Assembly: GCA_963710995.1 (NCBI GenBank)
Contig: CAVQCU010000212.1
Span: forward strand, 32,084-96,083
Direction of reading: 5' to 3'
DNA from: an uncultured delta proteobacterium
Lineage (GTDB): Bacteria; Desulfobacterota; Syntrophia; Syntrophales; Smithellaceae
Length of the DNA stretch: 64,000 bases
Shown: one piece after another, positions 10,613 to 41,672 of the stretch
How the letters are laid out: each line of letters begins with the position of its first letter
Numbering within the stretch: position 1 is the first letter of the stretch
The notes under the pieces: generated by a model
Told to the model about the DNA's origin: nothing
The model's database searches: none
Seen by the model: the letters and a program-made list of their open reading frames with translations, nothing else
Position numbers and translations under genes: made by a program

Positions 10613-10632
10613 ATACCGGCGAAGGCCGGTAT
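10613..10632. repeat. Isolated perfect hairpin ATACCGGC-GAAG-GCCGGTAT
   Basis: 8-bp perfect stem read directly. The apex resembles the GCGAAGC-type apices of the arrays. Confidence 0.75.
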
Positions 10633-12120: not shown

Positions 12121-12246
12121 GGGGCTTTTCAAAAATGCTTAGATGCGAGGCGCGCAAGCCTTGAGGAATGAGGCGTATTTATTCATACGCCGCAATGACG
12201 AAAGGCGTAGCGCAACGCAGCAGATGAGCGTTTTTCAAAAGCCCCC
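12121..12246 (+). repeat. PAL-1 element, copy 2
   Basis: GGGGCTTTTCAAAAA ... TTTTTCAAAAGCCCC ends. It abuts the regulator stop codon at 12247. The outer inverted pair AGCGGGAAT (12101-12109) / ATTCCCGCT (12249-12257) extends the palindrome into the CDS. Confidence 0.85.
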
Positions 12247-16679: not shown

Positions 16680-17131
16680 TAATGAGACTCGCTGAAAATG
16701 AGTCCCTAGTTTCGGAAGTATAACGCGCTGAAACTAGTTGGACGTAATGAGACTCAAATATTACAAATGCAGTGCAGTGATATTTGTAAGTCGAATTATC
16801 CAATAGCCAAAGGCTATTGGGAATTATACCAGGCGCTTAGCGCCGTGGTAAAACGAACGAAGTGAATAACCTAAAGGTCACTATAGATTTGAAGCGTTAG
16901 TCGTAATGAGGCTAAAACTTCAAAAACAAATCGCATTGAAGTTTTTAAGCCGAATTTTCCAATAGCCAAAGGCTATTGGAAATTAATGAAACTAAAATAT
17001 TACAGGCGTAGCGCAGTAATATTTGTTAGTTAAATTATCCCGCCGCAGGCGGAGGATATCGAAGATATCTGTGGTATCCCCGAAGCGAAGCGGGATTTAC
17101 GCCCCAAATTGTTTTGAAGCTCCTACACGTG
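16680..17131 (+). repeat. Hairpin-module array A
   Basis: Tandem TAATGAGNCT..AGNCG-framed hairpins, CCAATAGCC-AAA-GGCTATTGG twice (16800-16820, 16959-16979), and CCCGCC-GCA-GGCGGA. Modules are shared with arrays B-E. Confidence 0.85.
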
Positions 17132-19223: not shown

Positions 19224-19253
19224 GTAAACTTAATTTAATCAATTAATCAAAAG

Positions 19254-19280
19254 GCCGAATTTCGATTCGGCTTTTTTTTT
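19254..19280 (+). terminator. Rho-independent terminator GCCGAAT-TTCG-ATTCGGC + T9
   Basis: 7-bp GC-containing stem followed by nine T, 30 nt after the Cache gene stop. Confidence 0.8.
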
Positions 19281-19525
19281 AATGAGACTCGCTGAAAACG
19301 AACGAAGTGAAGTTTGAAGCGTTAATCGAATTATTTATTCCGCAAGTGAAGCACAGCGGAATTGGCAAGTTGAACAATCCCGCACAGCGGCGGTTATGAG
19401 ACTCCAACATGACAAGCGAAGCGTAGTCAGATTGGCTAGTCGAATTATCCCGCAAAGCGGAGGGTATGATACCCGGAAGCTTGCTGCGAAACGTTCCCAA
19501 AGCTTGATTTGGGATTCATACCCAC
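19281..19525 (+). repeat. Hairpin-module array B
   Basis: Starts (T)AATGAGACTCGCTGAAAACGAA. Contains ATTCCGC-N12-GCGGAAT, GGCAAGTTGAAC and AATCCCGC-ACA-GCGGCGG, and ends TTCATACCCAC. Confidence 0.85.
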
Positions 19526-20598: not shown

Positions 20599-20800
20599 AT
20601 CACGGGTATGAACCCCAAAGCAAGCTTTGGAAACAGATTCCGCAGTAAGCTGCGGGGTTTTAAACCCTCCACTGCGCGGGATAATTCGACCAGCAAGCTT
20701 CAGTGCACTTTGTTTCTGAAGCTTGGGTTTCATTACAACTTACCAATTCCGCTACGCCTACAGTGACCTTTAGGTTATTCGCTTTCGGAATTGGAGTTTC
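20599..20800 (-). repeat. Hairpin-module array C (reverse orientation)
   Basis: The reverse complement starts GAAACTCCAATTCCG and ends TTCATACCCGTGAT. It shares its module order with arrays E and B. Confidence 0.85.
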
Positions 20801-23823: not shown

Positions 23824-23873
23824 TATAGTGGGGTCCCGGCTGGAGTTGGGGGATTCCAAGTCACGGGATTGAC
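23824..23873 (+). repeat. R4 repeat, copy 2 (3' half only)
   Basis: CCCGGCTGGAGTTGGGGGATTCCAAGTCACGGGATTGA aligns with the 3' parts of copies 1 and 3. It starts right after the yidC stop. Confidence 0.75.
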
Positions 23874-23885
23874 ATGAGGTTAAAA

Positions 23886-24851
23886 ATGAGTTCAAGAATT
23901 TTAGAGATAGAAGAAAAATCGATTGACGAAGCCATTGAAAAGGCTTGCCTCGAATTTGGCGTACCACGGGAGAAATTAAATATCGAAATTATCTCTGGAG
24001 AATCTGGAGGTTTTTTGGGATTATTTTCCAAAAAAGCAAAAATAAAAGCATCTCTGGTTTCTCTGGACATGGATTTTAGCTTCACGGATCATCCAAAAGC
24101 TAAAAGCGAATCAAAAACAGAACATCGAGAAAAGCCGGCAAAAAATGTTATACCTGAAAAAAAAATTTTAACGGAAAAACCGGGAAAGAAGACAGAGCCT
24201 GTAGTTTCCAGCTCCAACACTATACCAGTGTCAAAGGCAAGTGAATCAAAAATAAAAATAGAACCACGGGTAAAGCCGGCAAAAAATGTTATACCTGAAA
24301 AAAAAATTATAACAGAAAAACATGGAAAGCAGACAGAGCCCGTAGTTTCCATCTCCAGCGCTGTGCTGGCGTCAAACGCAAAGGATCTGCTGGAAGGCAT
24401 TTTGCAGAGGATATCATTGGAATGTAAGGTGACTGTTAATGAAACGCCGGAAAAAATAATTCTCGACATTGAAGGCGATAACAGCGGTTTGCTTATCGGC
24501 AAACGCGGACAGAATATAGATGCTCTTCAGTATATATTGAACAAAGCAATCAATAAATTTGATAATGGACACAAAATGATCCTGATCGATTCGGGAGAGT
24601 ACAGAAAAAGAAGAGAAGAATTCCTGCTTGGTTTAGCGGAAAAAATAAGGGAAAGAGTAAAAAAGACCATGAAACCAGTATCGCTTGCCCACATGAATGC
24701 CCATGACCGGCGTATTATCCATATGGTGCTGCAAGAAGATGAATCGCTAATCACGCAAAGCCGCGGCGAAGGTAAATACAGAAAGATCGTCATTCTTCCC
24801 GCGAAAGCAGGCAATACCAAGCATGTCAGAGAAAAAAAATCACGGGTATAA
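23886..24851 (+). CDS. jag: Jag-like KH/R3H RNA-binding protein
   Basis: N-terminal Jag_N-like segment, C-terminal KH (GKRGQNIDALQYI) and R3H (HDRRIIH) motifs. Contains an internal 141-nt tandem duplication. Start chosen at the ATG with a GAGG SD. Confidence 0.85.
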   Translation: MSSRILEIEEKSIDEAIEKACLEFGVPREKLNIEIISGESGGFLGLFSKKAKIKASLVSLDMDFSFTDHPKAKSESKTEHREKPAKNVIPEKKILTEKPGKKTEPVVSSSNTIPVSKASESKIKIEPRVKPAKNVIPEKKIITEKHGKQTEPVVSISSAVLASNAKDLLEGILQRISLECKVTVNETPEKIILDIEGDNSGLLIGKRGQNIDALQYILNKAINKFDNGHKMILIDSGEYRKRREEFLLGLAEKIRERVKKTMKPVSLAHMNAHDRRIIHMVLQEDESLITQSRGEGKYRKIVILPAKAGNTKHVREKKSRV

Positions 24852-25063
24852 ACCCAAAGCAAGTGGTTGCGTATCATGTATAGTCCCACTTAGCTTCGCA
24901 TGTGGGATAATTTCCAATAGCGTTTAGCTATTGGATAATTCGTCTAAAAAACTTCAACGCGCTTTGCTTTTGAAGTTTAAGACTCATTACGACTAACGCT
25001 TCAAACTTCATCCCGACGAGTCTGGATTCGTTTTCAGCGAGTCTCATTAAATTGGAGTTTCAC
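24841..25063 (-). repeat. Hairpin-module array D (reverse orientation)
   Basis: The reverse complement starts GTGAAACTCCAATT and ends TTTATACCCGTG. It overlaps the last 3 codons and the stop of jag. Confidence 0.85.
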
Positions 25064-25118
25064 GAACAAGAATAGTTTTTAGTCAATTTAACTATATATA
25101 AAGGGGAAGTGTCCAACT

Positions 25119-40531: not shown

Positions 40532-40556
40532 ATATTCACTCCGCTAATTTATTGTT

Positions 40557-40663
40557 GAAACTCCAATTCCGAAAGCGCAGCGCAACGGAATTGGTAAGTT
40601 GAACAATCCCGCAAAGCGGAGGGTATAATACCCCGCAGCTTGCTTTGGGGTATTATACCCGTG
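40557..40663 (+). repeat. Hairpin-module array E (minimal 107-nt version)
   Basis: GAAACTCCAATTCCG-N14-CGGAATTGGTAAGTTGAACAATCCCGC-AAA-GCGGAGGGTATAATACCCC-N12-GGGGTATTATACCCGTG. It overlaps the last 3 codons and the stop of aroF. Confidence 0.88.
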
Positions 40664-41672
40664 AATGTCTCATCGCCGCGGCGATTGCCTTTAATTCGTC
40701 CATCAATTGATAAAACTTCTCCGGTTTCAGAGACTGCGCTCCATCGGAGACGGCTTTTTCCGGTTCCGGATGAACTTCCACGATAAGACCATCAGCGCCA
40801 ACAGCAACCGCGGCACGGGACAGCGGAATTACATATTTCCAATGACCGGCAGCATGACTGGGATCGACAATAACCGGCAGATGCGTCAAACCCTTCAACA
40901 CCGGAACAGCGCTTAAATCCAGAGTGTTTCTTGTGGCCGTTTCAAACGTCCTGATGCCGCGTTCGCATAGAATAACATTAGGGTTACCTGAAGAAAGAAT
41001 ATATTCCGCCGACATGAGTAACTCTTCGATGGTGGTCATCATCCCTCTTTTTAAAAGCACCGGCTTTTTCGAACGACCGACTTCTTTGAGCAGGGCAAAA
41101 TTCTGGGTATTGCGCGCGCCGATTTGCAGCATGTCGGCATAAGATTCCACAAGATCAACATCAGCGGGATTGACCACTTCAGTGACCGTCGGCAGACCCG
41201 TTCTCACACTAACCTGATTTAATACTTTCAAGCCTTCTTCTTCCATACCCTGGAAGCTGTATGGCGAAGTGCGCGGTTTGTAGGCGCCGCCTCTAAGAAT
41301 CTGGGCACCGCCCTTTTTGGCGACATAGGCGGACTCTAGTAATTGCTCTTCGCTTTCAATCGCACAGGGACCGGCTATTACCACGAATTCCGGGCCGCCG
41401 ATTTTAATCAGACCTACGGAAACCACGGTATTACCTTCGTGCGATTCACGACTTGCCAACTTGTATGGTTTTAAAATCGGCATGGTTTTTTCTACCCCCG
41501 GCAAGGATTCCGCGTATTTAAGGATCCCCTTGTCGCGATTGTCACCGACTGCCCCGATAATTGTCCGTTCAACACCGATTGAAGGATGCGCTTTGTATCC
41601 GACAGATTCAATCCAGTGAATCACATCTTCAATTTGCTTTTCTGTAGCTTGATTCTTCATTACAATGATCAT
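40653..41672 (-). CDS. aroF: 3-deoxy-7-phosphoheptulonate (DAHP) synthase, class I-beta with N-terminal regulatory domain
   Basis: KDO8PS-like core ([25 protein letters not shown]) after a ~70-aa ferredoxin-like N-terminal domain. Confidence 0.9.

Follow-up and report, generated by a model that had tools for sequence, protein, structure and literature searches.

GCGNAGC mini-hairpins as conserved tips and insertion sites of genus-specific, nested mobile hairpin modules in a Smithellaceae genome

BOX elements of Streptococcus pneumoniae are intergenic mosaics of a few module types, strongly folded and mobile; we know of no enzyme for them and of no description of nesting at their hairpin tips. 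SDR elements of Nostocaceae, credited to Elhai et al. in 2008 (Genome Res 18:1484), reportedly consist of units of ~20 nt nested in hairpin-forming repeats, are said to be lineage-specific and present or absent at orthologous or paralogous sites, and reportedly have no terminal inverted repeats, no target duplication and no known enzyme. The hairpin modules described here were analyzed in a 64,000-nt stretch of DNA (the window) from an uncultured member of the Smithellaceae, and were followed through the rest of this genome (G000) and other genomes of the genus. They are like BOX elements in forming intergenic modular mosaics, although the modules differ. They behave most like the Nostocaceae elements, with nested units of ~20 nt and polymorphism at orthologous sites, and this likeness is one of behavior. 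From the Nostocaceae elements they differ in lineage (Smithellaceae, with sigma-54-dependent regulators), presumably in sequence, in a landing site that can be defined (Y-G-N-A^ at a triloop tip, where ^ marks the point of insertion), and in host hairpins built on one fixed frame, with a mini-hairpin apex, a bulge of 2 nt and tandem G.A pairs.

The apex motif is identical by sequence to the d(GCGNAGC) / d(GCGNNAGC) mini-hairpin of Hirao and colleagues, with which it shares the C-G closing pair, the G-N-A loop and a G-C or A-T second pair; as DNA this mini-hairpin is extraordinarily stable, and its RNA counterpart is much less so (PMC13037366). Natural settings of the GCGNAGC type are single-stranded origins, priming signals and hairpin promoters, known from single phage or plasmid sites (PMC13037366), whereas the motif recurs here at the tips of hundreds of mobile hairpins and also serves as an insertion site, and 30% of the loops are A-N-A. 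REP, BIME and REPIN sequences are also short, extragenic, high-copy palindromes (PMC3116915, PMC3733652). Like the modules, REP and BIME elements have subfamilies with complementary stem changes and G.T pairs, and they form clusters and mosaics and insert beside or into one another; the processing of REP elements as single-stranded DNA is a proposal (PMC3116915, PMC3733652). REP elements are marked by an unpaired GTAG or CGTC tetranucleotide at one stem foot (PMC3733652). Module feet were TAATGAGACT/AGTCGAATTA or TATCCC/GGGAT, and GTAG was found only within the loop, when N = T. The modules are unlike REP elements in having no such tag, no inverted doublets and no RAYT association; they share an apex, whereas REP elements share a foot. 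With IS200/IS605 elements and PATEs they have in common the absence of terminal inverted repeats and of target duplication, hairpins near the ends, and orientation-specific insertion directly 3' of a 4-5-nt motif. By analogy with those elements, the polarity with which the smallest module inserts would be explicable by a single-stranded mechanism. The modules depart from IS200/IS605 in unit size, which goes down to 18-21 nt with one hairpin per unit, in having no relation to the ends of the resident IS200, in not co-occurring with Y1 transposases, and in a replication bias that is weak. No attC R''/R' cores (RYYYAAC / GTTRRRY) were visible in the module consensus. A first-pass annotation of the window had likened its hairpins to REP, IS200/IS605 ends and attC sites; given the missing tag, doublets and RAYT link and the unrelated IS200 ends, the likeness does not amount to membership in either of the first two groups.

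Array A (16684-17131, + strand) was resolved as a 448-nt mosaic of hairpin modules, each of which is present in tens of copies elsewhere in the genome. It contains a class A module, TAATGAGACT...AGTCGAATTA, at 16743-16802 (C212:48826-48885; + strand), with the T.G wobble variant ATGCAGT as its apex; a 20-nt mini-insert, TAACCTAAAGGTCACTATAG, at 16867-16886 (+), directly after GTGAA^; a class A module at 16982-17041 (+) with the apex GCGTAGC at 17006-17012; and a class B hairpin, ATCCC-CGAAGCGAAGC-GGGAT, at 17076-17096 (+) with the tip GCGAAGC at 17085-17091. Array B (19278-19525, +) lies directly 3' of a terminator-like hairpin and T-run (ggccgaatttcgattcggcttttttttt, window 19250-19281); its class A modules lie at 19278-19337 (+) and at 19392-19451 (+; apex GCGAAGC at 19416-19422). 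Array C (20599-20800, - strand) is downstream of the RNase P RNA gene, and the loop of its first hairpin, GCGAA^GCGTAGC, is split by a 20-nt mini-insert (insert at 20758-20777, GCGTAGC at 20751-20757; -). Array D (24839-25066, -; ~227 nt) interrupts a run of A/T at the jag 3' end and includes a class B hairpin with the apex GCGAAGC at 24893-24899 (-). Array E (40553-40664, +) is a minimal three-hairpin scaffold element in which hairpin 1 carries GCGCAGC at its apex (40575-40581); its DNA fold has an energy of -32.9 kcal/mol (z = -7.0). Hairpins share one orientation in 51 of 60 multi-hairpin arrays. RNase P RNA was the sole match in an Rfam search of the window.

The seven GCGNAGC copies cited in the first-pass annotation were all correct in coordinates and strand. 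They had been placed at hairpin apices, and five of them (17006, 17085, 19416, 24893 on the - strand, and 40575) are indeed the true apex of a longer stem. The copy at 20751 (-) lies inside the apex loop interrupted by the 20-nt insert, and GCGTAGC at 12205-12211 (+) is a non-apex copy outside any module, overlapping the 3' arm of a weak 5-bp inverted repeat. Loops that had been named as relatives of the heptamer proved to be the same apex in a shifted register or with a wobble pair: ATGCAGT and GTGAAGC are the apex with a C-to-T change at position 26 (C26 to T), which gives a T.G pair. The isolated hairpin at 10613-10632 (+), also put forward as a relative, has a perfect 8-bp stem and a GAAG loop and belongs to none of the repeat families.

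The class A module (50 nt) has the consensus TAATGAGACT-C-[10-nt arm]-N-A-[R-C-(R-N-A)-G-Y]-G-M-A-[arm']-TW-AGTCGAATTA. Across 71 distinct copies, 93.9% of stem cells were paired, compared with 25.9-38.3% when partners were slid by 1-3 columns, and changes on both sides were found at 14 of 20 pairs. A tandem G.A/A.G mismatch is conserved in the outer stem, and one abundant subfamily has a second tandem G.A mismatch in the inner stem. At the tip, the apex pair (positions 25-31) was A-T in 33 copies, G-C in 26 and G.T in 10, and the closing pair (26-30) was C-G in 60 and T.G in 7. The mini-stem therefore covaries such that GCGNAGC and ACGNAGT are two states of one structure. Triloops were counted in 235 copies from this genome (GAA 77, AAA 51, GCA 35, GTA 28); R-N-A accounted for 92%, with G-N-A in ~62% of copies and A-N-A in ~30%. 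A triloop census requiring a closing stem of at least 5 bp was uninformative, since the mini-stem is just 2 bp long. Among the forms of the apex R-C-(R-N-A)-G-Y, a 2-bp mini-stem closing a G/A-N-A triloop, GCGNAGC is the richest in G+C, and the recurrence of this apex at hairpin tips is real in that generalized form. The AAA apices (22%) count against a single-stranded-DNA reading of the hairpins; AAA is not, to our knowledge, a known hyper-stable DNA triloop.

Class A copies from relatives (71 distinct copies, mostly from G006) gave the triloops GAA 23, GTA 15, GCA 10, AAA 7 and GGA 4, with R-N-A in 59 of the 64 uninterrupted copies; their apex pair was G-C in 31, A-T in 28, G.T in 3 and A.C in 0. 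The same apex tops other hairpin families of the form TATCC(C)-x-GCGAAGC-x'-GGGAT, in which the inner stem differs per family, and is also found in TACCAGGC-GCGTAGC-GCCGTGGTA. Stems turn over through compensatory changes, and the apex and the two tandem G.A motifs are retained. At matching positions of array A in G000 (16684-17131) and of locus L041 in G019, class A modules have the inner stems CAAATATTAC and AAAAATTTCAC, respectively; the changes are all compensated and exceed the prediction from the 82-86% identity of the flanks, a pattern that suggests either replacement by conversion or fast paired evolution. Template switching at quasi-palindromes could be an alternative source of paired stem changes, without selection. 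The tandem G.A pairs of ATGAGACT...AGTCGAAT recall the hammerhead core beside stem II; a hammerhead or kink-turn reading of this sequence was rejected on inspection, as the essential C3 and G5 and the third stem are missing.

The mini-insert (TAACCTRAAGGTCAC...; 18-21 nt) consists of TAACCT(A/G)AAGGTCAC followed by a short variable tail. It was found in 120 exact-core copies in this genome and in 0-143 copies per genome in other members of the genus, where reversed-pattern controls gave 0-1. Among 41 distinct contexts, Y-G-N-A^ was the left context in 23 (tetramer-class background 2.8%) and position -1 was A in 36. Within class A loops the mini-insert separates the A of the triloop from the closing G (GCGAA^GC, GCAAA^GC) or, alternatively, follows A34 (GTGCA^, GTGAA^, GCGTA^); the conserved loop A-R-[C-G-N-A]-G-[Y-G-M-A] in effect contains two tandem copies of the target. 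Its orientation is constant relative to the GNA strand, and it also enters its own T-RAA loop, up to three deep. The array A copy at 16867-16886 is the filled member of a filled/empty pair, the orthologous site being empty in G019 (GTGAA^GTTTG, within GAAGTGAA^GTTTGAAGC). Junctions in G006 agree (GGA^, in a GGA^G triloop, and GAA^), and the apex carries an insert in 7 of 71 class A copies of relatives. Comparison of the left flank with the variable tail, by inspection, revealed no consistent complementarity or target duplication. The GCGNAGC tip is both the conserved structural tip and an insertion site of nested mobile hairpins specific to this genus; because even smaller units land on it, the tip has a working role in a form of selfish DNA that is poorly understood. 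In the initiator tRNA-Met, the anticodon arm together with the variable loop (CTCATAACCCAAAGGTCA, G000:C70:4746-4822) agrees with the core TAACCTAAAGGTCA at 13 of 14 positions. An origin of the mini-insert core in tRNA-fMet was rejected, as a match of 13/14 is close to chance (about one per genome, by our own estimate), and the likeness is probably a coincidence.

A class A covariance model (R1) was run on this genome and on genomes within and outside the genus. At least 158 copies were found in this genome and, also as minimum counts, 2 to over 140 copies per genome in 24 other genomes of the genus; beyond the genus, class A was almost absent in the covariance-model search. That the elements are mobilized, as the first-pass annotation had supposed, was borne out at orthologous sites, where array A, array D and the 20-nt insert are each present in some genomes and absent in others. 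In the closest relative (G043), flanks 96% identical to those of array A enclose 80 nt of unrelated unique sequence; in other relatives the site is occupied by a unique stretch of ~100 nt or by other arrays that share a scaffold. Array D is precisely absent in G019 and G043, where the site reads gagaaaaaaaA^caagaatag, and at the exact same site G046 carries a minimal three-hairpin scaffold of ~112 nt. The array D junction is ambiguous by only 1-2 nt and is without target duplication. The scaffold runs in the order TTCGTGAAACTCC, first hairpin (GCGNAGC apex), CCGCAAAGCGG, third hairpin, ATACCCGTGAT; its ends read TTCGTGAAAC... and ...CCCGTGAT, and CGTGA occurs in direct orientation at each. Terminal inverted repeats are lacking, and a classical MITE was rejected on this count together with the lack of a target-site duplication. 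These comparisons show that the modules multiply within genomes and are gained or lost from one related genome to another. With the insertion of array D, the final codons of jag (window 24839-24851) were replaced: the gene ends ...AAA AAA CAA GAA TAG in G019 and ...AAA AAA TCA CGG GTA TAA in G000 and G046, and the element provides the stop codon. Array D landed in a run of eight T/A and array B begins after a T-run; T-runs seem to be favored targets of scaffold elements. At window ~23832-23838, ~93 extra nt are present in G019 (C108:28223-28317) between collinear blocks that are 94% identical, which is probably another small insertion polymorphism.

Heptamer counts were compared with shuffled and Markov expectations. 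The window contains 27 GCGNAGC against 28.2 +/- 4.8 in dinucleotide-preserving shuffles, and coding DNA of the 3.53-Mb draft genome contains 1087, equal to the Markov expectation. Within the non-coding set (~0.70 Mb, as defined by the crude ORF calls of this analysis), GCGAAGC was observed 206 times (order-3 expectation 52, order-5 expectation 140), GCGTAGC 88 times (26 and 61), GCGCAGC 73 times (48 and 71) and GCGGAGC 55 times (47 and 54), such that GCGAAGC and GCGTAGC are 3.5-4 times over-represented. The comparison with a Markov model, proposed in the first-pass annotation, thus yielded an excess for non-coding copies with N = A or T and none for the window or for coding DNA. The heptamers were also scored against flanking inverted repeats, as proposed alongside it: 142 of 420 non-coding copies (34%) lie between complementary flanks (at least 6 of 7 flanking bases complementary, within 4 nt), compared with 215 of 5000 random non-coding positions (4.3%). 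Both the excess and the apex placement are due to descent within a few repeat families, of which the GCGNAGC recurrences are copies and not independent events. The claim that module apices are non-random and of the DNA mini-hairpin type is supported by the non-coding excess, the apex placement and the published properties of the motif (PMC13037366).

Stem mismatches were tallied by type. G.T outnumbered A.C (113 vs 73; p = 0.004), most strongly in the apex pair (21 vs 2), and purine mismatches G.A/A.G outnumbered T.C/C.T (153 vs 31). This asymmetry argues for a fold of the GNA-carrying strand and against a symmetric double-stranded palindrome or cruciform; as far as base pairs can tell, it points to a hairpin fold specific to one strand, the GNA strand. 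Tolerated G.T pairs and tandem G.A pairs are just as typical of RNA, which counts against the single-stranded-DNA reading. Top and bottom strands scored alike in nearest-neighbor folding, which does not model mini-hairpin stability. Strand bias relative to replication, another check named at the outset, was in the expected direction and reached only about 57-60:40, with p about 0.04-0.15 per test. On contig 7 of G006, with one replichore taken as 0.22-2.09 Mb from sampled GC skew, the GNA strand was on the G-rich strand (lagging-strand template) in 58 of 98 copies (58:40). Ratios in G000 were 65:53 for arrays, 25:15 for the mini-insert, 25:25 for class A, and 33:18 and 52:34 for the two scaffold ends.

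Other explanations were weighed against these data. Were the heptamer a common word, explained by chance or base composition and found in hairpins by coincidence, its counts in the window and in coding DNA would look as they do; this reading is refuted by the non-coding excess for N = A or T, by the apex placement and by covariation of the mini-stem, the apex is conserved across the genus as well, and its probability is close to nil. An action of the hairpins as RNA (terminators, 3'-end stabilizers, processing sites or small RNAs, the apex serving as an RNA loop motif or as a loop bound by protein) is unlikely. It would accommodate the G.U-type wobbles and tandem G.A pairs tolerated on one strand, the strongly negative structure z-score, and the positions of array B, just after a terminator-like hairpin and T-run, and of array C, behind the RNase P RNA gene and in the same orientation. 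However, orientation relative to flanking genes was random (both co-oriented 88, both antisense 79, divergent 72, convergent 40), and arrays D and E overlap the 3' ends of genes to which they run antisense, which argues against a cis-acting RNA role. The tips are moreover triloops, not GNRA or UNCG tetraloops, the RNA mini-hairpin is not notably stable (PMC13037366), the two strands fold equally under nearest-neighbor parameters, and the tips are DNA insertion sites. Very improbable is a function as single-strand initiation or priming signals or as hairpin promoters, with the apex read by a primase or polymerase. The known settings of the motif, namely the phage G4 origin, RSF1010 ssiA and the phage N4 early promoters (PMC13037366), are of this kind, and the slight surplus of GNA strands on the lagging-strand template would fit; but the bias is no more than about 60:40, related genomes do without the arrays at orthologous sites, and a spread of 2 to over 140 copies across one genus fits selfish spread better than a housekeeping role.

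Extragenic, high-copy hairpins without terminal inverted repeats or target duplication, inserted in a specific orientation directly 3' of a short motif, would also be expected of REP/REPIN-type or IS200/IS605-derived (PATE) elements processed by a Y1 HUH transposase (RAYT or TnpA), and this genome has both a 553-bp IS200-like element in nine copies and one longer Y1-domain ORF. This origin is nonetheless quite unlikely. No GTAG or CGTC tag is present at the hairpin foot (criteria of PMC3733652), and the hairpins of most multi-hairpin arrays run in the same direction (51/60) and are not inverted doublets. The hairpins at the left end (ATAGCCAC...GTGGCTAT) and at the right end (CCCCCAGC-TCCT-GCTGGGGG) of the IS200 element resemble none of the modules, and the resident IS200 was rejected as parent element. 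The longer Y1 ORF, on contig C9, adjoins a different repeat (GTAGCT...AGCTAC). Furthermore, in a search of 36 genus genomes, Y1_Tnp was present in the low-copy genomes G020 and G010 and was not found in G016 (98% complete, 117 class A copies), G024, G051 or G041. Y1 transposases were rejected as the mobilizing enzyme, their presence being without phyletic correlation to copy number. The associated single-stranded-DNA enzyme anticipated by the first-pass annotation was not found, Y1/HUH transposases being missing from several genomes with about 100 or more copies, and the 45 genes flanked by modules on both sides included no recurrent family.

The reading preferred here, held with a probability of about 0.6, is that GCGNAGC tops the hairpins of small, non-autonomous, nested mobile DNA modules specific to the genus, which would act and move as folded single-stranded DNA. 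Action of the hairpins as single-stranded DNA is plausible, and is the best available explanation that we infer from the apex type, the mobility, the one-strand fold and the insertion at the tip; the weak replication bias and the lack of an associated enzyme stand against it. In the mechanism proposed, extrusion of the hairpin would be nucleated by the very stable C(GNA)G mini-hairpin, which would also expose the site at which a putative structure-reading enzyme cuts and joins. Such processing would resemble that of IS200/IS605 or REP elements in logic, not in sequence or enzyme. Having a T-RAA loop of its own, the mini-insert nests within itself. A more speculative proposal, possible and on balance doubtful, is that the host genus carries an undescribed, structure-reading machinery for single-stranded-DNA insertion, without Y1/HUH, for which the Y-(GNA) tip is the landing and cleavage site and 18-21-nt units are the substrate. 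If so, these units would be among the smallest mobile DNA known, and each insert would add a new triloop; the process would then propagate itself, and the Russian-doll arrays would be accounted for.

The spread of very small palindromic repeats is an old open question, RAYTs covering only some REP families. For the modules, the landing site is defined with single-nucleotide precision (following the A of the C(GNA)G triloop), copy number among close relatives spans 0 to over 140, and both filled and empty sites are available in clean form; an enzyme should therefore be findable by phyletic association, and the single-stranded-DNA hypothesis testable with oligonucleotides. A large-scale natural role is possible for the d(GCGNAGC) mini-hairpin, long familiar from biophysics. 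In practical terms, arrays alter the 3' ends of genes (jag), break up assemblies and may pass for regulatory RNAs.

Two minor observations were made on Y1-domain genes of this genome. The IS200-like copies are ~99% identical and have an in-frame TAG in tnpA in 7 of 9 (G000 contigs C195, C204, C235, C22, C32, C138 and C133); the copy on C81 is without it. The shared TAG indicates either a defective element spreading in trans or read-through of the stop. Contig C9 (G000:C9:60-1500) holds a single 256-aa ORF with a C-terminal Y1_Tnp domain, after which comes a group of inverted repeats, GTAGCT...AGCTAC; these look like a distinct REP family, tagged with GTAG and accompanied by a RAYT-like gene of its own.
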